A DNA stretch of 64,000 bases, taken from assembly GCA_963555755.3 (NCBI GenBank), contig OY820905.2:1600001-1664000 (forward strand), read 5' to 3'. Under the pieces are notes generated by a model. It did no database searches, was not told the origin of the DNA, and saw nothing but the letters and a program-made list of their open reading frames with translations. This stretch comes from Nitrospirales bacterium. GTDB taxonomy: Bacteria > Nitrospirota > Nitrospiria > Nitrospirales > UBA8639. The position numbers and the translations under genes are program-made. This document shows positions 38,577-62,908 of the stretch, piece by piece. Within the stretch, counting starts at the first letter, position 1. Every line of letters begins with the position of its first letter.

Positions 38577-38679
38577 GCATGTGCTCAAGCAATAGCTACT
38601 CGACATTCCAGTTTTCAGGGCACGTCCAAGGGGGAAGGAATAGTTGCGTCACTCAACACCCCTCGATGAGGATCACCTC

Positions 38680-42113: not shown

Positions 42114-42167
42114 GCGAAATCACATACTTGAAAGGCGCACAGGTAGAACTCAGGGCGTTCTGGATTC

Positions 42168-43880
42168 ATGGCGTTCTCTTCAACGATAGCCAGATCTTGG
42201 TTAGCGAGTCGGTTTAAGAATGAGAGGGCCATTCCTCTCCTCTTAATTGCCATTGTCGTACTGATTTGGATTCCCCGGTTGGATGGTCCTATCGATCTGC
42301 GGTGGGATGCGGGCGTGTACTACATTCTGGGCACTTCAATTGCTCAAGGTGAGGGATATAGGCTTCTCAATGAGCCTGAGGAGATTGAAGCCGTCCAGTA
42401 TCCTCCGCTACTCCCGCTGATTGTTGCGGCGCATCAGTGGCTGCTGGGGACAAGCGATTTCCTGGTGGTCGGACAATGGCTAAGGGTCTTCTATTTCTTC
42501 CTGTACATAGGCGTTTCCGTTTCTGTGTACTGGCTCGCACGGCTCTATTTGACTCCAGGGTATGCCTTCCTTGCAGCGTTTGTGTGCATCCTGGATTTAA
42601 ATATGTATTACCTGTCCAACCTATTGTTTACCGAAATCCCCTTTACGCTCCTGACGACGCTCTTTGTCATTTGGAATCAGAAAAGCGAAAAGTTCGGATA
42701 TGCCATGTTAACCGCAGTAGCAGGGGTGGCAACGTACTTTCTGCGGACGGCAGGGATTGCCCTACTCGCCGCCTGGGTGGTTGAAAGCTTTCTGCACCGC
42801 CGATTTAAACAGATGGCTGTCCGAGCACTGGTGGCACTGATCCCGATCCTGATCTGGCAGGCCCACATTAGTGAAGTGAAATACAGCCAGGAGTACAGGC
42901 AACCCGCATACGAGTATCAACGTGCACCCTACCAGCAACACAACGTTACTTACCTGGAGAATATATCGCTGATCAATCCGTTCAGTCCTGAATTGGGCCA
43001 AGTGACAGCAGAGGAGATGATCAGGCGTATTGCGATGAACGTAATCGCCATTCCGGCGGCGCTGGGAGAAGCCTTGTCGGCCCCGATTTGGTTGTGGACA
43101 TTGTCGCTGAGGGAGGCCTCCAAACTGCCGGGCTTCCCGCTGCTCCCAATGTGGCTGGGCGATATACCGTTGTTGCTTTTCGCGAGCCTGGTGATTGCCG
43201 GAATGATATTGCTGGCGGCCCGCGGAAAGTGGTTCATCCCGCTTTACTTTGCTAGCTCTGTTGTCCTAATCCTTTTGACTCCCTTCCAAGGGCAGTTTAC
43301 ACGTTACTTCACGCCCCTAGCCCCCTTCCTAATCCTTTCCCTATTTTACGCCCTTGCGTGTGTCCAGGAGCGTTGCATCCGATGGTTTGTGGGGCCATGG
43401 AAGAAAGCCGGCCCACTGCTGAGTATTCTGGTTATATCGATAATTTTCCTCGTGGAGGGAGCATCTCTGGCCGCGCTATACAGCAAGCGGCGCTATGCTG
43501 TGAGTTACTATGATGCCCATGGAAATGAGGCGGTGCACCATTTATTTTTTTACTTCCCACCATGGAAAGCATTGGACGCTTCACTGGAATGGTTGCGGCA
43601 GCGGTCCAAGTCCGATGAGGTGATCGCGACGACAGTGCCACACTGGGCTTTTCTGCGTATTGGGCGCAAGGCGGTGTCGCCTCCCATGGTCGTAGGGAGT
43701 GAAAACGTACAGCGGCTGTTGGATTCAGTCCCGGTGAAGTATGTCGTCGTGGACGAATTACACAGTCCGGGCATCAGCCAACGGTACCTCGCGCCCGCGA
43801 TCGAGAAACTTCCGGATTTTTGGAAGCTTGTCTACGTTGCGCCGGAGGGGAAGTCCCAAATCTATGAGCGTATAAAATGA
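42168..43880 (+). CDS. GT-C-like multi-pass membrane glycosyltransferase, copy 1
   Basis: WDAGVYYILG, QYPPLLP, LFTEIPF, FLRTAGI. Confidence 0.8.
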   Translation: MAFSSTIARSWLASRFKNERAIPLLLIAIVVLIWIPRLDGPIDLRWDAGVYYILGTSIAQGEGYRLLNEPEEIEAVQYPPLLPLIVAAHQWLLGTSDFLVVGQWLRVFYFFLYIGVSVSVYWLARLYLTPGYAFLAAFVCILDLNMYYLSNLLFTEIPFTLLTTLFVIWNQKSEKFGYAMLTAVAGVATYFLRTAGIALLAAWVVESFLHRRFKQMAVRALVALIPILIWQAHISEVKYSQEYRQPAYEYQRAPYQQHNVTYLENISLINPFSPELGQVTAEEMIRRIAMNVIAIPAALGEALSAPIWLWTLSLREASKLPGFPLLPMWLGDIPLLLFASLVIAGMILLAARGKWFIPLYFASSVVLILLTPFQGQFTRYFTPLAPFLILSLFYALACVQERCIRWFVGPWKKAGPLLSILVISIIFLVEGASLAALYSKRRYAVSYYDAHGNEAVHHLFFYFPPWKALDASLEWLRQRSKSDEVIATTVPHWAFLRIGRKAVSPPMVVGSENVQRLLDSVPVKYVVVDELHSPGISQRYLAPAIEKLPDFWKLVYVAPEGKSQIYERIK

Positions 43881-44136
43881 GTTGGACATTTGTCGTGTCA
43901 ATCAAGTGGCTTTTCACCAATACCCAGTCGTATGCGGCGCGGTCAAACAAGGGCGCGGGAGGGGAATCTTTAGCCGGGTCCCCATGACAGGTGGGTGACC
44001 ATGGCGCAGCGATTTCTTCTAACCAGCGCATCGGTCACACTCATCCTGTGTCTCCTTGAAGGCCGCGTCCTTGTTAGAATTGTGGACTTCACATACTTGA
44101 AAGGCGCACAGGTAGAACTTAGGGGGTTCTGGATTC

Positions 44137-45852
44137 ATGGCGTTCTCTTCAACGATAGCCAGATCTTGGTTAGTGAGTCGGTTTAAGAATGAGAGGGCCA
44201 TTCCTCTCCTCTTAATTGCCATTGTCGTACTGATTTGGATTCCCCGGTTGGATGGACCTATCGATCTGCGGTGGGATGGGGGCGTGTACTACATTCTGGG
44301 CACCTCAATTGCTCAAGGTGAGGGATATAGGCTTCTCAATGAGCCTGAGGAGATCGAAGCTGTCCAGTATCCTCCGCTGCTCCCGCTGATCGTTGCGGCG
44401 CATCAGTGGCTGCTGGGGACAAGCGATTTCCTGGTGGTTGGACAATGGCTAAGGATCTTCTATTTCTTCCTGTACATAGGCGTTTCTATTTCTGTGTACT
44501 GGCTCGCACGGCTGTATTTGACTCCAGGGTATGCCTTACTTGCAGCGGTCGTGTGCATCCTGGATTTAAATATGTATTACCTGTCCAACCTATTGTTCGC
44601 GGAACTCCCCTTTACGCTTCTGACGACGCTCTTTGTCATTTTGAATCAGAAAAGCGAAAAGTTTGGATATGCCATGTTAACCGCAGTAGCAGGGGTGGCA
44701 ACGTACTTTCTGCGGACGGCAGGGATTGCCCTACTCGCCGCCTGGGTGGTTGAAAGCTTTCTGCACCGTCGATTTAAACAGATGGCTGTCCGAGCACTGG
44801 TGGCACTGATCCCGATCCTGATCTGGCAGGCACACATTGATGGAGTGCAGTACAGCCCGGAGTACACGCAACCCGCATACGAGTATCAACGTGCACCCTA
44901 CCAGCAACACAACGTTACTTACCTGGAGAATATTTCGCTGATCAAACCGTTCAGTCCTGAATTGGGCCAAGTGACAGCAGAGGAGATGATCAGGCGTATT
45001 GCGATGAACGCGATCGCCATTCCGGAGGCGCTGGGAGGAGCCGTGGCGGCCTCGAATTGGTTGTGGTTTTTGGGGGTGGTGATGGAGGCCTCTGAACTGC
45101 CTGGCTTCCCGCTGCTCCCAACGTGGCTGGACGATGTAACGTCGTTGCTTTTCGCGAGCCTGGTGATTGCCGGAATGATATTGCTGGCGGCCCGCGGAAA
45201 GTGGTTCATCCCGCTTTATTTTGCTAGCTCTGTCGGCCTCATTCTATTGACTCCCTTCCAAGGGCAGTTTACACGTTACTTCACGCCCTTAGCCCCCTTC
45301 CTGATCCTTTCCCTATTTTACGCCCTTGCGTGTGTCCAGGAGCGTTGCCTCCGATGGTTTGTGGGGCCATGGAAGAAAGCCGGCCCACTGCTGAGTATTC
45401 TGGTTATATCGATAATTTTCATCGTGGAGGGAGTATCTCTGGCCGGGACATACAGCAAGCGGCGCTATGCTGTGAGTTACTATGATGCCCATGGGAATGA
45501 GGCGGTACACCATTTATTTTTTTACTTCCCATCATGGAAAGCGCTGGACGCTTCACTGGAATGGTTGCGGCAGCGGTCCAAGCCGGATGAGGTGATCGCG
45601 ACGAGCGTGCCCCACTGGGCTTTTCTGCGTATTGGGCGCAAGGCGGTGTCGCCTCCTATGGTCGTAGGGAGTGAAAACGTACAGCGGTTGTTGGATTCAG
45701 TCCCGGTGAAGTATGTCGTCGTGGACAAATTAGAATGGCCAGATATCAGCCAACGGTACCTCGCGCCCGCGATCGAGAAACTTCCGGATTTTTGGAAGCT
45801 TGTCTACGTTGCGCCGGAGGGGAAGTCCCAAATCTATGAGCGAATACAATGA
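44137..45852 (+). CDS. GT-C-like multi-pass membrane glycosyltransferase, copy 2
   Basis: Paralogue of 42168-43880. Confidence 0.8.
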   Translation: MAFSSTIARSWLVSRFKNERAIPLLLIAIVVLIWIPRLDGPIDLRWDGGVYYILGTSIAQGEGYRLLNEPEEIEAVQYPPLLPLIVAAHQWLLGTSDFLVVGQWLRIFYFFLYIGVSISVYWLARLYLTPGYALLAAVVCILDLNMYYLSNLLFAELPFTLLTTLFVILNQKSEKFGYAMLTAVAGVATYFLRTAGIALLAAWVVESFLHRRFKQMAVRALVALIPILIWQAHIDGVQYSPEYTQPAYEYQRAPYQQHNVTYLENISLIKPFSPELGQVTAEEMIRRIAMNAIAIPEALGGAVAASNWLWFLGVVMEASELPGFPLLPTWLDDVTSLLFASLVIAGMILLAARGKWFIPLYFASSVGLILLTPFQGQFTRYFTPLAPFLILSLFYALACVQERCLRWFVGPWKKAGPLLSILVISIIFIVEGVSLAGTYSKRRYAVSYYDAHGNEAVHHLFFYFPSWKALDASLEWLRQRSKPDEVIATSVPHWAFLRIGRKAVSPPMVVGSENVQRLLDSVPVKYVVVDKLEWPDISQRYLAPAIEKLPDFWKLVYVAPEGKSQIYERIQ

Positions 45853-46234
45853 GTCGGACATAGGTCGTGTCAATCAAGTGGATTTTCACCAATGCTTAGT
45901 CGTATATGGCGCGGTCAAACAAGGTCGCAGGGTGGAATCTTTAGCTGGGTCCCCATGGCAGGTGGGTGACCTGATGGTCTGGCAGTCAGCACAAGGTAAA
46001 ACCCAGGTTCATCGTCCCGTTCAGATGGGCCTCCGGCTAGTTAAGCTGAAATGGTTACAGCCAACCAAGTAACAGGGGTGCGGAAGGCTGCACTGGGCTA
46101 CGCGGTCATTATCATTTGGCTCAGCACATGGATTTTCTACTCGTCAGTGAAACCCAATCACCAACCCAACTGTTACACGCTGGGCATAATCACCCTATCT
46201 TAATCTGGCACTTTGGAGCCTGGCCTTTCTGATC

Positions 46235-47374
46235 ATGAATGCATCTAAGACGAATCTGGCAAAGAGGTTTTTCCTCACCACCGTTTCGCTATTATTCACT
46301 GTGGGTCTCCTTGAAATCCTCGTCTTGGCCAAAATCGTTGACTTTAGGCTAGTACTGGGTACAGCCCGTAGCCAACCATGGCATCATCCAAACAACCTGC
46401 TCGATCCGAAGCTCTTGCACATACGCAAGCCATACCAATACTTCAAGTGGGCAGGGATCGAGTACCGCTACGATCAGCATGGTCTGAGGAACGAGGCGGA
46501 CCTCGAAACTGCAGACATTGTCGTGATTGGTGATTCATTCATCGAGGGTTGGGGAGTGTCTTCTGCCGACCTCCTCACTTCGCACCTGGGAAAGCAACTG
46601 GGCCGAACGGTAGCGAACCTTGGACAGTCGTGGTATGGCCCTCAACAGGAATTGGAGTTACTTCGGCGATATGGCGTACAGCTGCGTCCAAAAGTTTGCA
46701 CTTGGGTTTTCTACGAAGGCAACGACCTCTGGGACGTGGGCCGTTACAAGGAGGCAACAAAGAATTGGGTGAATTTTTCAAAGGACCTACACTCCTTCCG
46801 CCAGCGGTCCTTTACGAAAAACGCCATCGCTGCCATGCGCAAGCTCTTCTTCTCCGTAATGCCCCCTCGTGATGACAACGCCTTTATTATCAAGGACTGG
46901 TCAGGCGTATTCGAAATGTCATCAGGCCGTAAGGTCCGACTTATTTATTTGCAACCGAACCGTGGTAACTTGTCTCCCGTCGACCTCGAAGCCCTACAAC
47001 TCGTCCGTGCCAGCCTTGCGGAGGCACATGAGCTTTGTCGGAAGGTTGGAGCTAAATTCTGGGTCGTTTTTGCCCCGGTCACGTTCCGGGTCTATAAGGA
47101 ATTCCTCGAATTCGATCCTCAGGCGCAGGCACGAACCTGGGTGGCCAACGACCTTCCCGTAAAGCTTGAGATGATTGTCCGAAACGCGTTGCCTGGCGCA
47201 GAATTCTTGGACCTGACCCCCGCTCTCACTGCGAAGGCGGCAGAGGGACGGCTCCTGTATTTTCCAGAATGGGACACCCATTGGTCCCCGGAAGGCCATC
47301 GTGTTGCTGCCAACGCAATCGCCCAATCCTTGATCCAATGGGAGCAGAACCCTGTCTCAACACCACATCGCTGA
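46235..47374 (+). CDS. SGNH / AlgX-AlgJ-like protein (putative O-acyltransferase or esterase)
   Basis: N-terminal TM; DQHGLRN, VIGDSFIEG, YEGND, DTHWSPEGH. Confidence 0.85.
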   Translation: MNASKTNLAKRFFLTTVSLLFTVGLLEILVLAKIVDFRLVLGTARSQPWHHPNNLLDPKLLHIRKPYQYFKWAGIEYRYDQHGLRNEADLETADIVVIGDSFIEGWGVSSADLLTSHLGKQLGRTVANLGQSWYGPQQELELLRRYGVQLRPKVCTWVFYEGNDLWDVGRYKEATKNWVNFSKDLHSFRQRSFTKNAIAAMRKLFFSVMPPRDDNAFIIKDWSGVFEMSSGRKVRLIYLQPNRGNLSPVDLEALQLVRASLAEAHELCRKVGAKFWVVFAPVTFRVYKEFLEFDPQAQARTWVANDLPVKLEMIVRNALPGAEFLDLTPALTAKAAEGRLLYFPEWDTHWSPEGHRVAANAIAQSLIQWEQNPVSTPHR

Positions 47375-47472
47375 GACGCTAGGGAGCACCAGATTTGGGA
47401 AAGAAAGTTTTTTTCAAGGGATGTTCGTAACAGCGAGTTCACTCATCGTGGACTCGTTGTTGGCCGGGGACA

Positions 47473-49146
47473 TCACTCGATGTTAATGGGCCTCGATGCT
47501 GCAGATGTTGCCGAAACCGTGGGAGCTGATCCACTTCTCCGTAAACATTGGGTAACGGATGTGCCGTTGGGTAACTCGGGAAGGAAGTACAGTATCTCCG
47601 TAAATTGGTGAACGACCTCTTTGTGGTCGAGCGTCGCGTATTCTTGAAGCCATATCTCAGCAGGAGAGGGCTTCCCCAGGTCATGGACTTTCACGACTGC
47701 CACTCGGCAGCGGTTGTCGAGCAAATCATTCATATCGTCAGGCAGGTGCCGTTGTTCTAGTTGAACGACCCAGGAAGCCAGGGGTGTGGATGTCTCCAAA
47801 TAGCGACTGACACCCAAAACGCCAGAGGGAATAGAGTGGACGATGATGAGATCGGAGGGCGTAGACCAGGCCGCTAACCGAGTGCCTATTTCAGGATATG
47901 CCCATGGGCGGGATGGTTCTGCAAACACGTCCCTGATCCCTGGAAGCCAAGTGAGAAGGATCAGCATGAGAAAGGCAACCGCCCCCCTGGGTGGGAGCCG
48001 GCTTATGTAAAAGCCTGCCAACAGCATGGCTGCCGGAAAACCCGGCAGCGCATACCGCCAAACAGTAGAAGTTCTTGTGTGCATGAGTGAATCAAACAGA
48101 ACCGGGCCTAAGCACGAAGCGACCACCCACAACCAAATCAGGCTCCGCCCGTGAGAGGAAAGGCGCCAGACCCTTTTGTAGAGTAGTAGGACGATGAGGA
48201 ATGCATACAGGCAAACAATGATTCTGTCTGGCCACACGAAGTCGCTCCAGGGAACTCGGCTCCCAAGCAGGCTAGACGCCAAGTTGAACGGTGCTGCAAG
48301 CAGTTGCTGCCAAGTCATCTGCGAGTCTAACCAACCCGCGGTGACCCGCCACCGGCTGAGGCTGTCCGGAATTTGTATGTACCACGGAAGAATAACCAGC
48401 CCCGTCATAAGGATAAGTCCTACAAGAACACCTCGCTTCACTTTATTTGTGTGGATCCAAAACCACGCAAAGCAGGCAAGCCAACAGAAGGCGAAAAAAT
48501 AGTGAGTCAGGAGACCGGCTGCGCCAGTTACGCACCAAAGTAGCAAAAGATGTGGTCGCGGTCCGCGCCGGTTTAACAAAAAAGTACACAAGGCAAGGCT
48601 CAAGCCGAGAACCCACACCAGCGAATACATTCGTCCCTCCGCAGAGTAATAAAGCCCGGGCGGTGAAAAGGTGAACAGAAGGCAGGTTGCCCAGGCCGTC
48701 TTCTTTCCACCCACCTCCCGTCCGAGAATCCAAAGAAGTGGTAAACATGCCAAGGCAAACACAGTTGAAAAGAGACGGAGAGCAAAGTCACTGGTTCCGG
48801 TGATCCGGGTATACACGTTAAGGAGTAGGTAATAAAAGGGAGGGCTCGTGTCTGACAGAAACACCGCACGGATGACGCGGCTCGCTCCAGCCGGCGGCGT
48901 CTCGTGCTCCATGTAACGGCGAAATGCCGATGCTGGTTCTGCTGATTGCGGCTCTACAAAATCCCCCAACTTCGGGTCTGCATCCTCGGGCGGATGCTCC
49001 AGGCTGTGGCCTGTAGCCATGGCGAGTGAAAAGATTTCATCAGCCCATAGGCCCGGGTGCACTGCCGCTGGCATCCTCATGAGCGCTGCAATACACAAGA
49101 GGAGGATAAAAAGGGTGAATTGCCAGGTGTATTGGGATCGGCTCAA
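47473..49146 (-). CDS. GT-C fold glycosyltransferase (GT39/ArnT-like)
   Basis: LWADE, DTSPPFYYLLL, ALRLFS, AEGRMYSL, LTHYF. Confidence 0.9.
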   Translation of the reverse strand: MSRSQYTWQFTLFILLLCIAALMRMPAAVHPGLWADEIFSLAMATGHSLEHPPEDADPKLGDFVEPQSAEPASAFRRYMEHETPPAGASRVIRAVFLSDTSPPFYYLLLNVYTRITGTSDFALRLFSTVFALACLPLLWILGREVGGKKTAWATCLLFTFSPPGLYYSAEGRMYSLVWVLGLSLALCTFLLNRRGPRPHLLLLWCVTGAAGLLTHYFFAFCWLACFAWFWIHTNKVKRGVLVGLILMTGLVILPWYIQIPDSLSRWRVTAGWLDSQMTWQQLLAAPFNLASSLLGSRVPWSDFVWPDRIIVCLYAFLIVLLLYKRVWRLSSHGRSLIWLWVVASCLGPVLFDSLMHTRTSTVWRYALPGFPAAMLLAGFYISRLPPRGAVAFLMLILLTWLPGIRDVFAEPSRPWAYPEIGTRLAAWSTPSDLIIVHSIPSGVLGVSRYLETSTPLASWVVQLEQRHLPDDMNDLLDNRCRVAVVKVHDLGKPSPAEIWLQEYATLDHKEVVHQFTEILYFLPELPNGTSVTQCLRRSGSAPTVSATSAASRPINIE

Positions 49147-49589
49147 TCTGTCACACTGGTCGGTCAGAAAATATACTATTCAGCAGTCTTTGGTGATGAT
49201 GCTGGGTGGTATTCTGTTACGATCGACCCTAGAGTATAAATTTTCCCCGGCCAGCGTCAAAGTCAACAACTGATTAGCGTCAAAAACATCAACAGAGTTT
49301 TCTAAAGAGAGGCAAGCCCGGGATTTCTGCGCAAGAGTTGTCCTATTCAAAAAGGACGAGGGTCCAACTAATGACTATTGCCTTTAGGCGATTTTTAAAC
49401 GGTAATACAACCGCTGAAGCATTGGGAACTAGCCTTTTTCTCCTTACCAGACAGAATCGTTAATCCCATTATGCTATTCCGTGGGAGGAATAGGCAGGGG
49501 TAAAAATTTTTATGATATTAGGAATGGATTTTGCAGGTTCATTTGGGTACCTCGTTATTGACCGGTTTGTCTAAGGAATCATTTCTGAT

Positions 49590-50696
49590 ATGTCAGTGGT
49601 AATTGTAACAGGAAGTGCTGGCCTTATTGGGGCCGAGACCGTTCGATTCTTTTCCAGGAAGAATCTTACTGTCATTGGCATCGACAATGATATGCGCCGG
49701 TATTATTTCGGGAACGGTGCCAGCACTGCATGGAGTAGAGAAAGTCTGAAACAGAGCGTCCAGGGATATATTCATGCGGATATCGATATCCGCGATTATG
49801 GGTCTCTGGAATCCATATTTAAGCGGTATCATCGTAACATTGTCGCGATTGTCCACACTGCCGCTCAACCGTCACACGACTGGGCAGCGAGAGAACCGAT
49901 GACCGACTTTGCGGTGAACGCGACCGGCACTCTCAACCTTCTTGAGCTGACCCGACTGCACTGTCCCGCAGCGGTCTTTCTCTTCACCAGTACGAACAAA
50001 GTTTACGGTGACACACCCAATCGACTTCCTCTCATTGAGCAAGACAAACGATGGGAACTTACTCATACTCATCCATTCAGTACCTACGGCATTGATGAGT
50101 CCATGAGCATAGACCAGACCCTCCATAGCCTCTTTGGAGCATCAAAGCTCGGAGCTGATGTGCTGGTGCAGGAATATGGACGATATTTCGATATGAAAAC
50201 AGCCTGCTTCCGAGCTGGCTGTTTAACTGGGCCTGGCCATTCGGGCACCCAACTTCATGGCTTTCTCGCGTATCTCGTCAGGTGTACCATCACTGGCCAG
50301 GCGTACACCGTTTTTGGATACAAAGGTAAACAAGTACGGGATAATCTTCACTCGTACGACTTGGTAAGGGCTTTCTGGCAGTTTTTCCTGAAGCCGCGAG
50401 TTGCGGAGGTCTACAATATGGGTGGCGGGCTCCTCGCCAATTGTTCAATGCTGGAAGCGATTGACCTATGTGAATGGGTTATTGGTCGACCATTGCGTTG
50501 GTCATACAGTGAGTCAAATCGGGCTGGTGATCATATCTGGTGGATCAGTGACATTAGGAAATTCCAATTGCACTATCCCGATTGGCGTCCGACATATGAT
50601 ATTGAGCAAATCATTACCGAAATTCGTGATGGCTTGATGGATCACTTTGCTTCGAAAAAGTCGGTTGAAGCCCATAGCATGACCGTCACCCGTTAA
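49590..50696 (+). CDS. NAD-dependent epimerase/dehydratase (CDP-paratose 2-epimerase-like)
   Basis: [43 protein letters not shown]. Confidence 0.9.
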
Positions 50697-50897
50697 ATGC
50701 AACGCCTTTGGAGTAAGAATGCGCTGGAGCCCATAGTCTCCGTGGATAGTACCAAGAACCGAATGGGGTCGACGATTCGGGACTTGATGCGCTCCTAATA
50801 GGAAGGCCGTGAGGGGTTGTGCTGAGGGGTGTGCCATTCAGAAAGATCTTCGGTATTTAGTTCAAGGGTCTGGTTCCATTCTTGTTGAGGCTTCTCT

Positions 50898-52457
50898 GTG
50901 ATGAGGAAAGATACATCCTGCATTAAAACCCTGGCAATCCGCGAGCAATTTCGGGACGCGTATCTGCAACACCGCGATCCGATCCCTCAGGACCGGTTGC
51001 TGTGGCGGGCTCAGAGTTTCCGTCACATGACGCATGTTATGCCCGGGCAGACTATTTTAGAGCTGGGCTGCGGTCAGGGTATGTTCACCCAGCAACTGGT
51101 TCGGGTGACGCGGGAGGAAAATCCGATTACGGCGGTCGGGTTTACTCCCGACAGTACAGGGCCTTCAGTATCGTCTGCAGCGGTTGAATTCATTCACGCA
51201 CCGGAATCATTAGAGTCCCTGAAGGGCAGACAGTTTGATTTTATTGTCGCGATGGACCTTTTGGATCAGCGCACCGGTTCGTGGCTGCTGGAAAACGTAT
51301 ACCAACTTCTGAAGCCGGGAGGGCAGTTGGTGTTTTATGAGAGCAATCCCTGGAACGTGGTGCTTAAACTTCGAACGATTTTTCAAAGACTTTGGGGTCG
51401 GCCCGATCCACGATTTTTGCTCAGTCGCCTGCAATTGTACGAACTGATGTCGGAAGTAGGATTTATCCGAGTGTTTTCGATTTATAACGACTTTGTTTAT
51501 GCACCGCTCACTCAAGGGCTTTCCTGGATTCTCCGCAACCTGTCAATCGTGCTGGAAAATACTCCGGCAATCCGGACTCTGGCCGGGTCGATCTTGGTCC
51601 ATGGCCAAAAACCACCACGCAAAATTGTTCATCCCAAAAACTCCCTATTCGCCTACGAGCACCTTCGCCATGCCATTTCCGTCGTGATTCCGTGTCGCAA
51701 CGAGGAGAAAAACATCGGCTCCCTCGTGACAGGCCTGCTAGATTTATTTGGGGAGTACATTCACGAGATTATCATCGTCGACGACAACAGTGAGGACAAC
51801 ACTCGAGACGTTCTTCGCAGACTGGCTAAGAAAGCCTCTCGCATCAAACCCATTTTCCGCTCACCCCCGAATGGCGTAGGAAGAGCCATTGCTGATGGAT
51901 ATCGAGCCGTCACAGGTCAGTATGTCCTATCGATGGATTGCGACTTTTGGTATCTATTGCCGGAAATCCGCGACCTATTTGACGCTGCCGCAGAGGGTCA
52001 TGAAGTCGTCATAGGCAGCCGTTTCTCCCGGCACAGCGTTTTGTTGAACTACCCATTTCATAAGATCATTGCGAATCGAACCTTTCATCTCCTGGCTCAG
52101 TTGATGCTGCGATACTCCTTTCGAGACTTGACCAATAACCTCAAACTGATGCGTCGAGATGTCGTCGAGAAATTGCAGCTTAAGGAGCCAGAATTTGCTG
52201 TGAACGCAGAGATTGGTTTGCAGCTCGTGTTGATGGGCTGCAGGGTTAAGGAGGTTCCGATTTCCTGGATCGAGCGTACTTTTGATATGGACATTTCCTC
52301 ATTCAATATGGCTCGAGTCGGCGGCGGATATTGGAGAGTTCTGCGTCGCCTTTGGCTCAAGCGCGTCTTCGGCATCGGCGCTTACAAAACCCTTCCAATA
52401 CCGAAAAGACATCAGATAGAAAAATCCCGAAAGTCATTTTTTATGAAAAACGCATGA
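50898..52457 (+). CDS. Class I SAM methyltransferase-like + GT2 (DPM1-like) fusion
   Basis: LELGCGQG and LLKPGG, then SVVIPCRNEE, VDDNSED, SMDCD, IGSRF. Confidence 0.88.
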   Translation: MMRKDTSCIKTLAIREQFRDAYLQHRDPIPQDRLLWRAQSFRHMTHVMPGQTILELGCGQGMFTQQLVRVTREENPITAVGFTPDSTGPSVSSAAVEFIHAPESLESLKGRQFDFIVAMDLLDQRTGSWLLENVYQLLKPGGQLVFYESNPWNVVLKLRTIFQRLWGRPDPRFLLSRLQLYELMSEVGFIRVFSIYNDFVYAPLTQGLSWILRNLSIVLENTPAIRTLAGSILVHGQKPPRKIVHPKNSLFAYEHLRHAISVVIPCRNEEKNIGSLVTGLLDLFGEYIHEIIIVDDNSEDNTRDVLRRLAKKASRIKPIFRSPPNGVGRAIADGYRAVTGQYVLSMDCDFWYLLPEIRDLFDAAAEGHEVVIGSRFSRHSVLLNYPFHKIIANRTFHLLAQLMLRYSFRDLTNNLKLMRRDVVEKLQLKEPEFAVNAEIGLQLVLMGCRVKEVPISWIERTFDMDISSFNMARVGGGYWRVLRRLWLKRVFGIGAYKTLPIPKRHQIEKSRKSFFMKNA

Positions 52458-52899: not shown

Positions 52900-54183
52900 A
52901 TGAAGATAGCCCTCCTGTCATTTGAATATCCTGAAGAAACCGGGTTCGGCGGGATCGGTACCTATACCTGGTACCAGGCTCGCGCCTTAGTCAAGCTGGG
53001 GCACGAAGTGCATGTGTTGGCTGGGGCCACCGAGCCAACCGCACTTCGGATGGAAGCACATGATGGGGTTTTTGTGCACCGATATCGGAGCCATGGCTTC
53101 TTTCATCATTTTCCGACACTGCTGAATACGAGGAAATTGCTGAATAAAAACAAATTGGGGTGGACCAGTAATCGTGCAGAAAATGCCCTCAATATGTATC
53201 AGGCCTGGAAGGTGTTAGACCGTGAGCATCATTTTGATGTTGTGGAAATGCCGGAATGCGGGGCCGACGGTGCACTGATTAATCACATCACCTCGGCACG
53301 TACGATTATGAAGTTTCACTCACCGTCGCGCCTGATCATGCCACATTATGACGTGACGGCAACCGACATCGCGCTCTGTTCCTGGTTAGAGAAAATCGGG
53401 ATGTGGGGAGCCCAGGCATTTTCTTCTTGTTCGAAATTCCTTGCCGATGAAGCGCACAAGAAACTTGGGATTCGAGGTCCGATTCAGGTTATTCCCAATG
53501 GGATCGACCTGCAGTTATTCGACACGTCCGCGCGTGTGAATATTAGAAAGAAGTTCGGATTGTCCCCCACTCGGCTAATTATCTTTTTCTCAGGTCGAAT
53601 GGAACCTCGTAAGGGAATTCATCTGTGTAAGGATATTGCCACCTCAATTTTGGAACGATATGAGGTGGACTTTGTGTTTGCCGGACAGGACTTATTCAAT
53701 TACATGTCGGACACATTGCTTCCCTACCTCAAGGGGAGAACGTTGAAAGGGGCCGTGCATTACCTGGGAAAGCTTAACCTCACTGATGTTCGTTCCTTTC
53801 TCACTCAAGCTGATATTTTTCTCCTTCCAAGTCTTTGGGAGAACTGTCCTTATTCATGTCTTGAAGCCATGGCGTCTGGATGTGCCATTGTATGCTCGAA
53901 TCAGGGAGGCCTGCCTGAATTGATTCAGGACGGGCAGAATGGACTCCTCACGCCCAACGAACATGCCCCCTCATATATCGCCAATCTTGAACGATTGATT
54001 GAAGACCAACCCCTTCGTGAACGTTTAGGGGTGGCGGCCAGAAACACGATCGAGGACCGGTACACGGATATACATATTGCCCGCCAGTCTTTGGCGTATT
54101 ACGCAAAGGGTGTATGTCAGGGAATGCCTACCGCGGGAGAGGCCATCGGGACAGATCGTTTAGGAGAAAAGTGTGCAGAATAA
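52900..54183 (+). CDS. Glycosyltransferase family 4
   Basis: EYP..GGIGTY, IPNGID, GRMEPRKG, PSLWENCPYSCLEAMASG. Confidence 0.93.
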   Translation: MKIALLSFEYPEETGFGGIGTYTWYQARALVKLGHEVHVLAGATEPTALRMEAHDGVFVHRYRSHGFFHHFPTLLNTRKLLNKNKLGWTSNRAENALNMYQAWKVLDREHHFDVVEMPECGADGALINHITSARTIMKFHSPSRLIMPHYDVTATDIALCSWLEKIGMWGAQAFSSCSKFLADEAHKKLGIRGPIQVIPNGIDLQLFDTSARVNIRKKFGLSPTRLIIFFSGRMEPRKGIHLCKDIATSILERYEVDFVFAGQDLFNYMSDTLLPYLKGRTLKGAVHYLGKLNLTDVRSFLTQADIFLLPSLWENCPYSCLEAMASGCAIVCSNQGGLPELIQDGQNGLLTPNEHAPSYIANLERLIEDQPLRERLGVAARNTIEDRYTDIHIARQSLAYYAKGVCQGMPTAGEAIGTDRLGEKCAE

Positions 54184-54242: not shown

Positions 54243-57200
54243 ATGGGCAGGCTGTTCATCGAAAAAGAAAATGTAATTCAGCTCGACAAAGAACAGTATG
54301 ACCTTTGGCGGAGCGATGACTTCTCTGGAAAGACTGTGTGCCATGCACCTTTTGTTTCCCTAGATGTTCGTGAATCTGGCGCGGTGCATGCATGCCCCTA
54401 TTCCGAGATGGATTTGGGCCACGTAGGTGGTCAGCCCCTTGAATCGATCTGGAATGGTCCAGGTTTTGGTGAAGTGCGTCACCGCTTTCGGGAATATCGT
54501 GTCAAGGTTGATGAATGTGGTGGTTGTGTCAATTCTTGGAAGGAGGGCGTACCAGGGAAAAGCCCGGCTCTCGTAGAGTTCGATAGCATAAAACCTGCTC
54601 GATGGGGATCTCCGTATGTTCCTCAAATTCTCAGACTCGATCTGCGCGCACCGCTTTCGGCAATGGATACCAAGACGGTGTTTCGATGGTTACCACGGCT
54701 CGCTCGGCTGGATTTGGGTATCTCCTGGCCTCTACCAACCGATTCACTTTTTCGGACACTCATAGATCGGGCGGCCACGCTTCCTGACGGCAAGCGTCCG
54801 AAGATCACATTACAGGTGTTCGAAAACATTCCAGAAGCCAATAACATTCCCCACGGGATTGCGGTCGTCAGACTCAACCTTGCCATGAATGATGAGGATC
54901 TTTCTTCTCATCAGGGTGAGGTATTGGAGGAGCTGGCCCGATCTCTTCAAGCTCGAGGTGCGGAGCTTGTCCTTGAGGTTTCCGTCCATCAGGGAAACTG
55001 GATTCATCTTCGATCCTGGCTCTTGCGCGCGCACACTCTCGGAATCACGCTTGTACCGTTGCTAGCTCCGACATCAGAGAACGCATCACTTGCCACCCTT
55101 GATGGTGATGCACTGGCTTGCCTCCACAGCATCTTTGAGCAGTGGCTGTCTGAACACCCACACGCCACCCAGCTAGGGTCAGCATCCCCAACAAGACATG
55201 CCATGCTTGATCAACTCCGACGGTGGCAGCATGAAGCTGCTGGGCGTCCTCCGCAGCGAACCGTTCTCTCCTTTCCTGGTCCTGACCATTCCATTGTTCA
55301 GGATGAAACAGCGTTGGAACCGTTTCTGGCCGGTTTACTCCGGATCTATTCTGACTTTTCCATCGAGCGTTGGCTGATGGGGCTCACTGAAAGTAAGGGA
55401 TTTGTCGCGAAGGCCCGGCGCCGGCGTTCGTTCCGTCTCGCGGCATGGTGGCTTGGCTGTGTGTTCGACCGTGCCGAGGTTCTTCCACTCCTAGGTCGGG
55501 TCTTTCGGACTCATGAGGAGGCTCGCCGCCTCATTGACAAAGATCGGAACGCTCTGGCTGGTACGATTTGGGAAAGTTGGTTCGATGGCTGGACGAGGCA
55601 GCTATACCTTAATTCCCTGCAGCCGCGGGGACGACGCTTTGATGTTGGCGCACCCCGGCGAGAAACTGCGGAAGAAACTGCTCAGATCACCGTGATCATG
55701 GCCTCCTACAATCACCAGGCCTTTATCGGGAAGGCAATCCGTAGTGTCCTGGCCCAGACACGAACCGACTTTCGTCTACTTATAGTCGACGATGCATCAG
55801 TGGATGAAACAGTTAAACAGGCTGAAAAAATCCAGGATCCTCGAATCCTCATTCGTCGAAACTCGAAAAACCTAAGACACGGCCCAAACTTGGCACGGGC
55901 ATTGGAGAACGTCGAAACAGAATATGTGGCCTTCATGGACGCCGATGACCTCTTCCATCCAAAACGTTTAGAACACTGTCTTTCCGCCTTGGAAGAAACT
56001 CCTCGAGGAGCTCTGGTCGCGACGGGCTTGGCTGTAGTCGACAAGGAAGGCCGGTTCTGCTCAACAGCCGACTCCTCCCCAGTCTTTGAGGGTTTGAAGA
56101 ATTATAATTGGTTGCGTTTCTATGAAGAGCAGGCCCGCCTGACCAAAACTCCTGCCGATTTTCTGGGAAACCTCTTGGAAGGGAATTCGCTAATTACGAC
56201 TTCAAATCTCGTGGCACGTACGGAGTTTCTCAGGCGCCACCAAAGTCAGTGGCAGCGTCTCGAGTTCTGCGTAGACTGGCAGCTTTTTTTGGCTGCGGCC
56301 TTAGAAAACAGATTGTGCTATGTGCCAGAAACCTTGTTGGGATACAGGCTCCACCCATCCAATTTTAAGTGGACCCACTGTTTCGATAAGGGGTCCAACT
56401 GGCACTACTACTTGGAGTACAACCAGGTTGTCGCAAGGACACTGGGTCATCTACTCCAAAGGTCCGACGGGTCGGATGCCAAGGGATTCACCACTGTTTT
56501 GAGTGCCCTGACTGACCACTTGAACTCAAACACGTCCATGGATTGGCCTGGGGTGGTATTAGGGTTCCTGTTGGAACGTTTGGGCTTGTCACCCCGTGAC
56601 CTAAAAAGCGATTCAGTGGCCGACCGTGTCCAAGCACTGATTCAAGCCCGAGACTTTCGTTTGCAGACAAGGTTTTGGCCCCCAGATTACGTGGACGATA
56701 TCGCGGAGCAGTACCGGATGCGAGGAGAAGCACCGTTCCTCCGTTCCCTACGGAACAAGTATGAAGGGCTTCAGAACAGTCATGACCGACTTCAAGGCGA
56801 GGTCACAGGACTGCTGTTTGATCGTGCCAATGCTAAAAAATGGTGGCGCAAGGCCGAGCAGGAGCGTGACCAGGCCCTGGCAATACAGCAAGACCTGCAG
56901 CACCAACTCGGAGGACTGCAGGGGGAGCACGACCAGGCCCTTACGAAACAACAGGGCTTGTCTTGCCAAATTGGGGAACTGCAAGGAGAGATCGAGAAGG
57001 TCCGTGCCTCATGGAAATGCGTGGAGAATGAGCGGGATCAAGCCATACATGACAAGGGCGAACTCTTTCAAGAAATTGGCCTGTCCAAGAAGAAACTCGA
57101 CTGTGTGCATACGCAGTTAGAAGAACGTACCACCGAACGCAATGCCTTATTACATTCCCTGGAATATCGAGGCGGGCAACTCTTGATCCAAGGGTTCCAT

Positions 57201-58637
57201 TGCCGTCCATTGATTCGAGGGGTTGAGTGGATGACCGTGAAGATTCAACGGCATCTGGCTTTCTTGGGCTTAACCCTCGCACGATGGTCATCAGGATGGC
57301 GTCAGGAGAGCTCTAGGGTGTTGGCGACAGTGTGTGCGGCCTTTCCTATTTATTCGCAGACTTTTGTGCATCAGGAACTTTCACAGTTAGCGAAACGTGG
57401 GTTTCAGATACGGCTGATCTATTCATCCCTGCAGTCCAGGGGAAATCTTCATCACCAATTCGACTCTCTCTGGAAACATAAAAGCCGTCTTTCAATATAT
57501 GACAAAATCCATGAACAAGATTTTGACCGATTTCGAAATCAGTTTCCTGAGAAGGTTGAACGACTCATTCATATGGTCGGTGATTCATCCGGTGTCACCC
57601 GAGAGAAATTAATTCGACATCCACATTTCTTGCAGGCCTTTTCGTTTACGCGAATGGCTGAGGTGTACCGTCCTCACTACTTGCATTCGTATTTCTTTTA
57701 TGACCGGTCCTTTATGGCTCTCGTGGCTGGCTATATACTCGATATTCCGCGAGGCATCAGTTGTTATGCCGATCATGTCCTGGATGACTACAAACTCAAG
57801 GTGGTGCCGCTGCACCTTGAATTGTGTGATACGGTGATTGCCACATCTGAACGCATCAAAGCTGAACTCCTTGCGATGGCCCCAAAGACCGATCCGACAC
57901 GTATTGTGGTGAAACCTAATGCCATTGATACGACATGGTTTCCCAGGATTGAATGCCGTGAACCACAAACTGATGAGCCATTCCGGCTCGTATGTGTAAA
58001 TCGAATCGAACCCAAGAAGGGGTTGCTCTATCTCGTCGAAGCTATCCACTCTCTCCGTCAGCGAGGACATCATGTCGAGTTGCATGTGATCGGCACGGCA
58101 GATACAGGGATTCAATCCAGCCAAGATTATAAACACAAGTTAGATGAATGCATCTCTGATTATAATTTGTGGGGTGTGGTTCATCTAGAGGGGCAACAAA
58201 ATCAGGAAGGTGTTCTTCGATTTCTCAACATGTCTCAGGTATTTATTGCCCCATTTATTGAAACAGACTACGGAGATAAAGATGGGATCCCCACAGCCCT
58301 GTTGGAAGCCATGGCCACCGGGTTGCCGGTCGTGGCTACCGATGCAGGTTCCATGGGGGAAGTGATCCAACATGATCGAGAAGGAGACGTCGTTCCACAA
58401 CGTGATAGTCAGGCCCTCGCCGATTCTATTGCACGACTTCTTACTGATCCACAGCGCAGGAAGAAATTGGGACAGGCAGCCGCGGATACTGTGCGGCAGC
58501 GTTTTGATGTGAGCGTATGCGAACACCGCTTTCATGATCGTGTTTTGTCGGTCATTGAATCCAGAGGTCCTAATGGAATGTCGCGGCAATCCCCTGGTTT
58601 CGATTTCCTGCCGAGGTGGATCTCTCGAGTGTCCTAG
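54243..58637 (+). CDS. Multidomain protein: SPASM/Twitch-like Fe-S domain + unknown region + GT2 + coiled coil + GT4
   Basis: CHAPF..G.V.AC...LG......IWNG...R..C..C; TVIMASYN..VDDAS.D..FMDADD; heptad-rich segment; RIEPKKG..DGIPTALLEAMATG. Confidence 0.85.
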   Translation: MGRLFIEKENVIQLDKEQYDLWRSDDFSGKTVCHAPFVSLDVRESGAVHACPYSEMDLGHVGGQPLESIWNGPGFGEVRHRFREYRVKVDECGGCVNSWKEGVPGKSPALVEFDSIKPARWGSPYVPQILRLDLRAPLSAMDTKTVFRWLPRLARLDLGISWPLPTDSLFRTLIDRAATLPDGKRPKITLQVFENIPEANNIPHGIAVVRLNLAMNDEDLSSHQGEVLEELARSLQARGAELVLEVSVHQGNWIHLRSWLLRAHTLGITLVPLLAPTSENASLATLDGDALACLHSIFEQWLSEHPHATQLGSASPTRHAMLDQLRRWQHEAAGRPPQRTVLSFPGPDHSIVQDETALEPFLAGLLRIYSDFSIERWLMGLTESKGFVAKARRRRSFRLAAWWLGCVFDRAEVLPLLGRVFRTHEEARRLIDKDRNALAGTIWESWFDGWTRQLYLNSLQPRGRRFDVGAPRRETAEETAQITVIMASYNHQAFIGKAIRSVLAQTRTDFRLLIVDDASVDETVKQAEKIQDPRILIRRNSKNLRHGPNLARALENVETEYVAFMDADDLFHPKRLEHCLSALEETPRGALVATGLAVVDKEGRFCSTADSSPVFEGLKNYNWLRFYEEQARLTKTPADFLGNLLEGNSLITTSNLVARTEFLRRHQSQWQRLEFCVDWQLFLAAALENRLCYVPETLLGYRLHPSNFKWTHCFDKGSNWHYYLEYNQVVARTLGHLLQRSDGSDAKGFTTVLSALTDHLNSNTSMDWPGVVLGFLLERLGLSPRDLKSDSVADRVQALIQARDFRLQTRFWPPDYVDDIAEQYRMRGEAPFLRSLRNKYEGLQNSHDRLQGEVTGLLFDRANAKKWWRKAEQERDQALAIQQDLQHQLGGLQGEHDQALTKQQGLSCQIGELQGEIEKVRASWKCVENERDQAIHDKGELFQEIGLSKKKLDCVHTQLEERTTERNALLHSLEYRGGQLLIQGFHCRPLIRGVEWMTVKIQRHLAFLGLTLARWSSGWRQESSRVLATVCAAFPIYSQTFVHQELSQLAKRGFQIRLIYSSLQSRGNLHHQFDSLWKHKSRLSIYDKIHEQDFDRFRNQFPEKVERLIHMVGDSSGVTREKLIRHPHFLQAFSFTRMAEVYRPHYLHSYFFYDRSFMALVAGYILDIPRGISCYADHVLDDYKLKVVPLHLELCDTVIATSERIKAELLAMAPKTDPTRIVVKPNAIDTTWFPRIECREPQTDEPFRLVCVNRIEPKKGLLYLVEAIHSLRQRGHHVELHVIGTADTGIQSSQDYKHKLDECISDYNLWGVVHLEGQQNQEGVLRFLNMSQVFIAPFIETDYGDKDGIPTALLEAMATGLPVVATDAGSMGEVIQHDREGDVVPQRDSQALADSIARLLTDPQRRKKLGQAAADTVRQRFDVSVCEHRFHDRVLSVIESRGPNGMSRQSPGFDFLPRWISRVS

Positions 58638-58639
58638 CC

Positions 58640-59461
58640 ATGATGCACGCCGTTACGGAAACCCTATCTCATCCTTCGAAGACATTCCAAGGACTCCAGA
58701 AACCTGCCCTTGAGTGTCGGAATGTTGTGAAGGAGTATTTTTTATATCAGCAACGAACCACCTCTCTTCGCGAGTGGGTCATTCGAACCCTGTTGCGTCA
58801 TCCAATCCCTGCCGGGCAGTCGTTTTTTACGCTCACGAATTTCAATATGACAGTGTCCAAGGGTGAAAGTGTGGCGCTCATTGGGGATAACGGGTCGGGA
58901 AAAAGTACGGCTTTGCGCCTCATGGCTGGCATCTATCAACCGACGAGCGGATCCATTCACACGTTTGGACGGGTTGGTGTTGTCATGGAACTGGGTGCAG
59001 GCTTTCATATGGAACTCACCGGGGCAGAAAACGTGGAAATTTATGCGGTCTTAATGGGGCTGACTCGAGACCAGTTCGCCTTTCGCTTTCAAGATATCAT
59101 CGAATTCTCGGAACTGAGGGATTACGTGAACATTCCGGTGAAATATTATTCCTCAGGCATGCAGGCTCGATTAGCGTTTTCAGTCGCCATCTGTATCACT
59201 CCAGAAATTTTATTATTGGACGAAGTCTTAGCGGTTGGAGATCAAGGTTTCAGAGAAAAGTGTCTGGATCGTTTGCGAACCTATCATTCAGAAGGTGGAA
59301 CGTTGGTCATCGCCTCCCACAGCTTTGAAATAATTAGGGAGTTATGTTCAAGGGCCGTGTGGCTGGAACAGGGCGTGATCCAAATGGATGGGGAGATTAA
59401 CGAGGTACTTGATGTCTATCAATCGGCAAGCAAGTCACGGATACTGGCCGGCAAAATATAG
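58640..59461 (+). CDS. wzt: Polysaccharide ABC transporter ATP-binding protein, without C-terminal carbohydrate-binding domain
   Basis: GDNGSGKST, YSSGMQARLAF, LLLDEVLAVGD, ASH. Confidence 0.93.
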   Translation: MMHAVTETLSHPSKTFQGLQKPALECRNVVKEYFLYQQRTTSLREWVIRTLLRHPIPAGQSFFTLTNFNMTVSKGESVALIGDNGSGKSTALRLMAGIYQPTSGSIHTFGRVGVVMELGAGFHMELTGAENVEIYAVLMGLTRDQFAFRFQDIIEFSELRDYVNIPVKYYSSGMQARLAFSVAICITPEILLLDEVLAVGDQGFREKCLDRLRTYHSEGGTLVIASHSFEIIRELCSRAVWLEQGVIQMDGEINEVLDVYQSASKSRILAGKI

Positions 59462-60941: not shown

Positions 60942-61736
60942 CTACGTACAGGCAGTTCTTGCCACAATTTTTTGCCCAGATAAACCACGTAAAGAGGCGG
61001 ACCGTGAGCTCAAGATAATCGTTTTGTTCGCGGACCAATAGCAGTTGGAGAGGAGGTTGGGGTTGGAGCCACTCTCGAACAGGGCGGTGCATATCTGGTA
61101 CTCGCCTGCGATTTGAAAAACATCCACTGGTTCCGCGAGAATCTTCACCGCCTGAGGAGCTTGATCTTCGCTGAACTCGATGTCAGACCTGAAGGGCACT
61201 GCATATTCCTCAAAGTTCGGAAGAAAATAGATCACGTCATCGGGACTGCGGATGCCGACGAAAAGATCAGCGACCATGGGTTCGCCCTTGTAATGGAAAT
61301 CCAAGTTCACTTCCAGTATGTCGCCGGGCTGCACCACTTTGCGGTTCACCCGAAGCTCGCTCCGCTGCAGTTGTTCCCTTGCCTGGGAATGGGGGTCATG
61401 GGTCCCGGTCGCCTTGAAACTATTTGGACCCTTCATGCGATCGAGGATAAAGTGCTGATCGTCATCACGATAGATGGGGCACCTTGTAGACTGGCACTCT
61501 GGCGGTAGGCGTTGCTCGCTCAGGGCTTGCCGGATCCTCTGCATAATCGGCCCATTCCAGATTTGCTCAAAGGATTCCTCGTTGACACTACCTACCACCG
61601 CACTTGAGAAGCAGCAGAAATTTACGCTGGCATCGGAAAGGATTACTGAGGTGCCCTGCCAGGGTACGTCACATAAGGATTGCCGCAGTTGCGTCGCTAT
61701 CCATAGAACTTGGTTTGGGTTCCCCGCAGCAGTCAT
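60942..61736 (-). CDS. Stand-alone SPASM/Twitch-like domain plus C-terminal beta-sandwich-like domain
   Basis: GGAG RBS; CDVPW...VNFCC...VGSVNEESFEQIWNG...IRQ...PECQSTRCP. No CxxxCxxC. Confidence 0.75.
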   Translation of the reverse strand: MTAAGNPNQVLWIATQLRQSLCDVPWQGTSVILSDASVNFCCFSSAVVGSVNEESFEQIWNGPIMQRIRQALSEQRLPPECQSTRCPIYRDDDQHFILDRMKGPNSFKATGTHDPHSQAREQLQRSELRVNRKVVQPGDILEVNLDFHYKGEPMVADLFVGIRSPDDVIYFLPNFEEYAVPFRSDIEFSEDQAPQAVKILAEPVDVFQIAGEYQICTALFESGSNPNLLSNCYWSANKTIILSSRSASLRGLSGQKIVARTACT

Positions 61737-61783: not shown

Positions 61784-62710
61784 CTATTTGTGAGCGGTCT
61801 TATATTTTCCAGAGAAAATTGAGAGAATTCGTGGCGCCCATTTAGGATTCTCACATTTAGTACCGGAGTTTTGCACTGACCGCTCTTCCTGGAGCTCCGC
61901 CTCTGTAGGGGGGCCAGGTAACTCGATATTTAGTCCCAAAACCTCCGCTGCCTGGCGGGTCCGCTCGCGCTCACGATTGTATTCCGTACCGAATTTTCTG
62001 GTGCACTCTTCACGGTAATCGAAGATGCCACCAGTTTTCGTCTCGACCTGCCAGTCGAGCCAGTCCCCCTCGTGTAGGTGATAGTATCTGACGCCATCCA
62101 CTTTTAATGCCTTCGCCAAATACATCAGTGGCATCATGTCCTGTACGCTACTCTTGGTAATCACGAAGGAGAGGGTGATCTGGGTCCTATCACGCCGTGC
62201 CTCAAACCGGTCGACGTAGGTTTTAATGTTGCGGACGATGGGCCAGAAGTGCTTGCCGCGGATCCTCAAGAAGGTTTCAGGAGTGGCAGCATCTATGGAA
62301 AAGTTAATCGAAAGATAATTAGGGTAGTTCGCCAAGGCATCGAGATATTTCGGCGTACAGACTGAGCCGTTAGTGTTAAGGGACAGTCCTACCCCAGCCT
62401 CCGCACATCGGCTGACGATATCAAAGAACTCCGGGTCGATCATGAACTCGCTGATGCCATGAAACGCGAGCGCCTCGGATCTTGGGATCAACTCCAGCAA
62501 TTTTTTCCAGGTATCCCCTTCGTTCTTGGTCCTGGGAATCTGGTTGCCAACCCGATGATCGATGCAGTAGACGCACCGAAAGTTACAAATGTTTGATCTT
62601 GCGATCTGCAAGTTTGGAGGGATAGATTTGACGTTGGCAATGCCGTGGGCGAGCTCCCATTGCGCCTGATACCTATTCTTCTGATTAAGTTTGAGTTTGT
62701 GAACTGACAT
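61784..62710 (-). CDS. Radical SAM protein lacking a C-terminal SPASM domain
   Basis: GGAGG RBS; CNFRCVYC, HGISEF, LNTNGS, FSIDAATPETFLRIRG. Confidence 0.9.
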   Translation of the reverse strand: MSVHKLKLNQKNRYQAQWELAHGIANVKSIPPNLQIARSNICNFRCVYCIDHRVGNQIPRTKNEGDTWKKLLELIPRSEALAFHGISEFMIDPEFFDIVSRCAEAGVGLSLNTNGSVCTPKYLDALANYPNYLSINFSIDAATPETFLRIRGKHFWPIVRNIKTYVDRFEARRDRTQITLSFVITKSSVQDMMPLMYLAKALKVDGVRYYHLHEGDWLDWQVETKTGGIFDYREECTRKFGTEYNRERERTRQAAEVLGLNIELPGPPTEAELQEERSVQNSGTKCENPKWAPRILSIFSGKYKTAHK

Positions 62711-62908
62711 CAAGTCTTCCTCCGCCGGTTCGAACGTTTGTCAAAACCTTGAGTGTGCCACAAGGCTGATGGTGTATCGTTACATCACAAAGGATGTTGA
62801 AGCAGGGTGAGACGAACGGAGCGTCGTATCTGGACCGAAATGTTTTGTTGGTAAATTCCCGCATGTCATCGAAAGCATTGCGAACAGATTCTTTCTATTG
62901 AGATAGAT

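Follow-up and report, generated by a model that had tools for sequence, protein, structure and literature searches.

A probable ruler-type glycan synthase with a radical-SAM pseudoenzyme head in a Nitrospirales bacterium

Introduction

Why a glycosyltransferase should carry the remains of a radical S-adenosylmethionine (SAM) enzyme at its N-terminus, and what such a head may do, is the question raised by a single open frame at 54243-58637 (+ strand) of a 64,000-nucleotide stretch of DNA from a Nitrospirales bacterium (assembly GCA_963555755.3, contig OY820905.2, positions 1,600,001 to 1,664,000; hereafter the window). The frame encodes a protein of 1464 amino acids (aa), called here the fusion protein. 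A sequence-only reading had described four cysteines in SPASM/twitch-like spacing and an IWNG motif within its first 100 aa, about 370 aa without CxxxCxxC that might be a decayed radical SAM barrel, and then a glycosyltransferase family 2 (GT2) domain, a coiled coil that might act as a chain-length ruler and a glycosyltransferase family 4 (GT4) domain, with wzt starting 2 bp past the stop codon. It had further suggested that the protein is a polymerase or terminator whose N-terminal module serves redox sensing or docks a separate radical SAM enzyme encoded nearby. Our analysis confirmed the layout, divided the 370 aa into a barrel (about aa 126-335) and a helical domain (about aa 340-465), and spoke against the docking.

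Architecture of the fusion protein

From N- to C-terminus, the protein consisted of a catalytically dead radical SAM enzyme with an N-terminal twitch (N-twitch), a helical domain, GT2, a coiled coil, a basic helix and GT4. This anatomy, that of a ruler-type glycan synthase with a radical-SAM pseudoenzyme as its head, is assigned with high confidence. Pfam located GT2 at aa 483-603 and GT4 at aa 1041-1414, with a heptad signal between them, and none of the library models covered aa 100-477. A chimera produced by assembly was ruled out by homologues with the same architecture, because the relatives share the order of N-terminal module, GT2 and GT4 wherever they are complete; this is better evidence than the presence of the whole stretch, without differences, in single contigs of runs X9 and X10, which may be the source of the window DNA itself. 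At E 1e-10, 22 homologous proteins were found among 1.84 billion representatives, and five full-length relatives among 7993 candidates. No published description of the architecture was found in a literature search that left out subscription papers and supplements; proteins of this kind might still be listed in a survey table.

The twitch module

The module for a single auxiliary cluster (twitch) occupied aa 31-115 (54333-54587, + strand). Exactly four cysteines were present in the first 100 aa, in the pattern C33-X12-G46-X4-C51...C92-X2-C95, and their spacing agrees with positions one to four of the SPASM/twitch motif, C-X9-15-G-X4-C-gap-C-X2-C, as given in PMC6231123. The Pfam SPASM model (PF13186) matched aa 33-95 with 30.9 bits (cut-off 21.5, E 3.4e-7). 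NF033640, which describes N-twitch radical SAM enzymes, reached 28.8 bits against a cut-off of 170 and matched with its positions 2-76 only, that is, with the twitch part. In the AlphaFold2 (AF2) model the β-hairpin (strands 39-42 and 47-49) was followed by the α2' helix (helices 66-83 and 89-100), with a predicted local distance difference test (pLDDT) of about 87-94, so the N-terminus does model as a twitch. The IWNG motif was found at I69-W70-N71-G72, and it was not invariant in homologues.

No cysteine other than these four lay ahead of C293, and the seven-cysteine SPASM motif with its second cluster was absent. A full two-cluster SPASM domain was ruled out by the shortage of cysteines, and the module is therefore a twitch. 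C33, G46, C51, C92 and C95 were kept in all ten homologues with a whole N-terminus, a count that omits fragments, apparent frameshifts (P0017 and P0018 among them) and twitch-less forms. The four cysteines are predicted from this pattern to hold one cluster, the metal being assumed to be iron-sulfur with zinc as the possible alternative. Four protein ligands predict a fully ligated cluster of the BtrN type (PMC6231123). The module resembles the BtrN twitch described there in the motif, in the hairpin followed by a helix and in the four cysteines that would fully ligate one cluster; it differs in its N-terminal position, in the loss of the catalytic cluster and in its fusion to glycosyltransferases.

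The radical-SAM barrel and the helical domain

The catalytically dead partial barrel comprised aa 126-335 (54618-55247, + strand). Modelling of the N-terminal 477 aa by AF2 from 22 sequences gave a pLDDT of 85.7 and a predicted TM-score (pTM) of 0.81, and the model placed the twitch ahead of a region (129-331) in which strands, six in all, alternate with helices, followed by the helical domain. In a wide structural search (VIA) the first 16 rows were radical SAM proteins, a few of which we take to be so from their titles, and the best of them was BlsE (Z 9.3, root-mean-square deviation 3.5, 189 aligned residues). BlsE and DesII were the nearest solved folds to the head; these two enzymes, like BtrN, act on sugar-like substrates. 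Both the model and the profile alignments below agree with a partial (β/α)6 barrel homologous to radical SAM cores.

The evidence from sequence profiles is the stronger for the identity of the barrel. A first profile-profile alignment of the dead family with intact N-twitch enzymes covered aa 4-299 (P 99.55), and a whole-module alignment with hhalign, in which ten dead sequences were compared with a closer set of 14 intact ones, extended over aa 5-368 (P 99.7). The latter contained one large gap of 29 columns after R135, which was exactly the CxxxCxxC loop. Because the intact relatives had been found through the twitch, the barrel was also aligned on its own; with the twitch excluded it matched the intact enzymes with P 93.2 and a score of 51.9, compared with 21.2 for the best of 30 column shuffles and at most 16.8 for four control comparisons with GT2, GT4 and helical domains. 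CxxxCxxC occurred in 14 of 14 intact and none of ten dead sequences, and nowhere in the 1464 aa of the fusion protein. The SAM-binding GGEP motif, which active enzymes have behind strand 2, and the TNG motif behind strand 3 were replaced at the aligned columns in the dead family (TNG 0/10), and the sole GEP string, in P0013, sat in the helical domain. The profile match, the loss of the 29 columns and the CxxxCxxC counts thus lead to the reading of the head as a catalytically dead N-twitch radical SAM enzyme, and the view that aa ~5-368 derive from such an enzyme by deletion of its CxxxCxxC loop appears well supported by alignments and model. An active enzyme with a non-canonical motif was ruled out, as the only conserved cysteine within aa 100-335 is one close to C293, at the barrel's far end.

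Compared with NF033640 and the intact enzymes of glycan loci (L002, L010, P0058, P0059, P0063 and P0029), the head is co-linear over aa 5-368, with the twitch followed by the barrel, and has the same four cysteines and flanking motifs; it differs in the lack of the CxxxCxxC loop, GGEP and TNG, and in forming a separate, fast-evolving clade. The GeoRSP SPASM-domain protein (TIGR04304) was among the nearest Atlas feature neighbours of aa 100-475 (score 0.90). That family is likewise described as a barrel without CxxxCxxC that has auxiliary cysteines. It differs from the fusion protein in its C-terminal SPASM domain and stand-alone form, and its model matched only aa 32-95 (E 0.014).

The helical domain (aa 340-465; 55260-55637, + strand) was family-specific according to the AF2 model and the alignments. 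Only the whole-module alignment paired its first ~30 aa with the tail of the intact N-twitch enzymes; when the tail profiles were compared on their own, the match fell short of significance (P 0.9), and an Atlas search with aa 336-477 gave no lead above 0.77.

Intact relatives, conservation and loss of the twitch

Intact N-twitch radical SAM enzymes made up the weaker matches of the protein search. The Nitrospirales locus L002 (genome G061) had an intact paralogue at 7249-8817, encoded divergently and right upstream of the fusion homologue, and in an Electrothrix genome with the fusion an intact enzyme lay between a sulfotransferase and a GT4 gene. Among eight long intact forms examined, the enzyme was followed by GT2, a methyltransferase and a deacetylase in P0059, by GT4 and a sulfotransferase in P0063, and by a pyruvyltransferase-like domain in P0058. 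From these contexts the intact clade is a candidate group of glycan-modifying enzymes. As the intact relatives are both tied and fused to glycan genes, a fusion of an intact enzyme with GT2 is a plausible ancestor of the fusion protein. Two side observations concern this clade: L010 635-2134 belongs to the intact N-twitch radical SAM enzymes, and the fusion partners across P0058, P0059, P0063, P0029 and P0064 include a PAS domain.

Conservation within the head was reversed relative to the intact enzymes. The mean pairwise identity of the intact enzymes was 42.2% for the twitch and 47.8% for the barrel, whereas that of the dead family was 45.8% and 29.9%, respectively. Among eight full-length members, the identity was 51% for GT2, 60% for GT4 and 41% for the helical domain. 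Against the close relative L006, the ratio of non-synonymous to synonymous substitution rates (dN/dS) was 0.20 for the twitch, 0.49 for barrel aa 136-209 and 0.11 for the upstream GT4 gene; changes were few throughout, and the barrel value rests on five synonymous and seven non-synonymous ones. Forty-one of 477 positions, the four cysteines among them, were invariant across eight divergent members.

The twitch was absent from several homologues. L003 (a 1.1-Mb contig) and L007 started in the middle of the barrel, with no twitch remnant upstream in any frame; both are truncations verified on the DNA, and in both of them the barrel's second half remained along with the helical domain. In P0019, a protein without DNA context, only the twitch was gone and the N-terminal strand ran straight into the barrel. 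P0024 resembled P0019, with a start that could not be checked. Since two homologues with DNA context have no twitch at all, sugar transfer probably does without the cluster, and the best reading of the cluster is a structural and droppable one.

Records from Nitrospirales, Electrothrix and Planctomycetota retained the fusion module, as did the genome of the window (G000). A search of 60 relatives of G000 gave no match to it, and in samples of 401, 401 and 400 genomes from three other groups only the seed genome was positive; the profile used missed the intact G061 enzyme, so that these searches do not bear on intact paralogues. The matches L005 and L009 were chance or unrelated and were dropped.

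Glycosyltransferases, coiled coil and basic helix

The GT2 domain, of the GT-A fold, comprised aa 481-735 (55683-56447, + strand), its C-terminal limit being estimated from the alignment, and contained DD516-517 and D-x-DD566-569. The GT4 domain, of the GT-B fold, comprised aa 1024-1440 (57312-58562, + strand) with a conserved D-X7-E, and was EpsE/WcaL-like below the cut-off. For aa 700-1464, AF2 run on the single sequence gave no usable model (pLDDT 38).

Between them lay the coiled-coil spacer (aa 836-970; 56748-57152, + strand). The spacer between fixed flanks was 144 aa long here and ranged from 31 to 441 aa across 15 family members. It contained no proline, and its heptad periodicity exceeded that of all 200 shuffles; in 11 of the 15 members the signal was reached by at most one of 200 shuffles. 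Changes of coil length come in helical units. One 25-aa repeat unit was gained between two members of one 90% cluster, and the L004 coil contained three 84-nt repeats. Related strains in two marine-sediment runs of one study carried a net in-frame loss of 63 nt (21 aa, three heptads, within aa 883-909), which was the only joint listed in those runs. Together with the wzm/wzt locus, the heptad signal and the variation in length are consistent with the ruler-like role proposed at the outset.

The coil was followed by a basic, partly amphipathic segment (aa 972-1020; 57156-57302, + strand), which, by analogy with WbdD (PMC11231755), is a candidate membrane-docking helix. A basic segment was present behind the coil in 15 of 15 members, with a net charge of +3 to +11. 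Its hydrophobic moment here was high (0.60), and other windows of the protein matched it, up to 0.62.

Known coiled-coil ruler synthases of ABC-dependent O-polysaccharides include WbbB (K. pneumoniae O12), ORF6 of O7 and WbdD (E. coli O9a). In the layout described in PMC11231755, the terminator is distal, the amphipathic helix and the polymerase are near the membrane, and Wzt usually has a binding module. Measured against that description, the fusion protein likewise has N-terminal catalytic module(s), a coil, a basic and probably helical segment and a C-terminal glycosyltransferase, with wzm and wzt in the locus. It differs in its distal head, which is a dead radical SAM enzyme with GT2 instead of a Kdo transferase or a methyltransferase-kinase, in having only one glycosyltransferase C-terminal to the coil, in a Wzt of the window's genome without a binding module, and in the almost complete lack of a coil in some members of the family.

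Possible functions of the head

We give about even chances to the reading in which the dead module is a non-catalytic scaffold with a structural cluster, supporting the GT2 head on a coiled-coil stalk; the stalk, by analogy with the known rulers, likely measures the exported glycan chain. The phylogeny and the fusions suggest that an N-twitch radical SAM enzyme of glycan loci would have been fused ahead of GT2 and then have lost its chemistry. The resulting scaffold would gain stiffness from a single iron-sulfur cluster, predicted to be fully ligated, and would carry the GT2 head at the tip of the stalk. If the protein works as WbdD- and WbbB-type systems do, the basic helix behind the coil would dock it on the inner membrane, GT4 and the adjacent stand-alone GT4 would extend the lipid-linked chain near the membrane, and GT2 at the far end would add a residue, which may be a cap, when the chain has grown to span the coil.

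Several results weigh against this picture. In the tree, the dead modules fell into a single clade (100/100) whose long stem set it next to the 14 intact enzymes instead of among them, and the dead barrel alone matched the intact clade no better than it matched other N-twitch enzymes (P 84.6 vs 89.3). The VIA score of 9.3 was modest, unrelated barrels reaching 7.3, and a Foldseek search with the N-terminal model gave no match at E 0.001, so that the support from the fold search is no more than moderate. All four spacers whose heptad signal was not significant were short (31-67 aa). No match to the Wzt_C binding module (PF14524) was found in G000, which is 99.4% complete; the homologous G061 locus does have the module, and capping is thus plausible for the family and not established for the window's genome. 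Cysteines that stay invariant at 30-45% identity would fit electron transfer or docking as well as a structural cluster. Finally, an intact paralogue was found in two of three twitch-bearing genomes and not in the single twitch-less one (G062), a co-occurrence that favours a partnership between dead and intact modules.

In such a partnership, which we regard as unlikely, the dead module would dock the intact N-twitch paralogue at the chain tip, or feed electrons to it through the twitch cluster, for a radical tailoring or capping step. The two genomes with the paralogue are G061, where it is the divergent upstream neighbour in L002, and G063. The intact clade is also rare: with three candidates scored for each genome, a survey of 400 genomes from the G061 phylum detected it in one, G061 itself. 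Intact forms have glycan enzymes as fusion partners. Transfer of electrons from one radical SAM protein to another via auxiliary clusters is reported for PapB (PMC10470005). Only four genomes enter this comparison, though, and co-inheritance on one island explains the co-occurrence equally; moreover, G000 keeps the four cysteines and the intact paralogue was not found in this 99.4% complete genome, where the partner would have to have been lost. We regard as equally unlikely the wider proposal that the undescribed N-twitch clade does radical chemistry on lipid-linked surface glycans, with the fusion protein as a pseudoenzyme partner that places the radical step at a measured length.

The same losses could be read as plain erosion. 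The module would then be the remnant of a fused radical SAM enzyme under stepwise loss, with no role beyond not misfolding, and a series from an intact fusion (P0059) through dead forms with the twitch to forms without the twitch (P0019) and without half of the barrel in addition (L003, L007) can be arranged accordingly. The barrel identity of 30% is at the level of the coil, and the barrel dN/dS of 0.49, from few changes, points the same way. The 41 invariant positions in eight divergent members, the twitch dN/dS of 0.20 and the retention of the module across Nitrospirales, Electrothrix, Planctomycetota and G000 make such a vestige quite unlikely. Less probable again is a sensor of redox state, oxygen or iron in which glycan synthesis is turned on or off according to the cluster's state. 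It would account for an invariant four-cysteine site fused to biosynthetic enzymes, and a low-oxygen lifestyle of G000 is possible, because no match to heme-copper oxidase subunit I was found in this 99.4% complete genome; four protein ligands, however, predict a closed cluster of the BtrN type without an open site (PMC6231123), and twitch-less forms persist in similar glycan loci.

The weakest proposal, and in our judgement a very improbable one, is that the dead module recruits the radical SAM enzyme at 61784-62713 (- strand) and supplies its missing twitch: this enzyme is an intact bare barrel with CxxxCxxC only 3 kb away, but it belongs to another family than the head, and the next gene (60942-61736, - strand), a stand-alone twitch with a ~150-aa domain without Pfam match, is its natural partner. 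P0075 fuses both halves (74% and 55% identity), and the enzyme therefore has a twitch partner of its own. Its family gave 134 matches, mostly stand-alone and mostly of 270-300 aa, and is not a conserved companion, as only G000 among the four carrier genomes has it; no true member was found in G061, G062 or G063, and the single weak match in G061 was the intact N-twitch enzyme. Comparison of its barrel profile with that of the dead barrel revealed no detectable kinship (P 1.4).

Ruler-type glycan synthases gain a head of a new type, namely a radical-SAM pseudoenzyme that retains the site of an auxiliary cluster, and one family displays a stepwise route from intact enzyme to scaffold. The uncharacterised clade of radical SAM enzymes, repeatedly fused to domains that build or decorate glycans, makes radical chemistry on bacterial surface polysaccharides testable on the proteins named here. 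The twitch freed from the catalytic cluster is a clean natural reagent for the role of auxiliary clusters, which is called elusive in PMC10470005.

The surrounding locus

The fusion gene was directly followed by wzt (58640-59461, + strand), which encodes an ABC ATPase of 273 aa without the C-terminal carbohydrate-binding module in library scans. Its ATG at 58640 lies 2 bp past the stop, and an overlapping GTG at 58616 is the alternative start. The conserved upstream neighbour was the stand-alone GT4 gene (52900-54183, + strand), with 60-93% identity in L002, L004 and L006. Library scans placed the permease gene wzm at 38644-39498 (+ strand). In L006, wzm directly precedes GT4 and the fusion gene; in the window, unlike L006, about 13 kb of other glycan genes (39638-52457) stand in between. 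In L003, wzm was found at 2666-3643 and no wzt among the open reading frames within 20 kb, the Wzt_C matches of G062 being on other contigs.

The sparse distribution of the module and the insertion sequences and gene fragments in its surroundings suggest a rare, mobile glycan island, which is partly decayed. Transposases and a partial GDP-mannose dehydratase, as well as two pieces of the 59495 GT4 gene, mark the decay (5687-6460, 12705-13649, 34995-35933 and 28967-29632 of the window; 1833-2072 and 4426-4689 of L051). The window also encoded two paralogous proteins of ~1000 aa (23631-26621 and 29989-33006) with GT-C (PMT_2), CBM_4_9 and GDSL domains, of which L002 had a shorter CBM_4_9-GDSL relative. 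Sulfotransferases recurred beside the fusion or the intact enzyme (L003 8130-9920, L010 1-597 and P0063), hinting at sulfated glycans in those loci.

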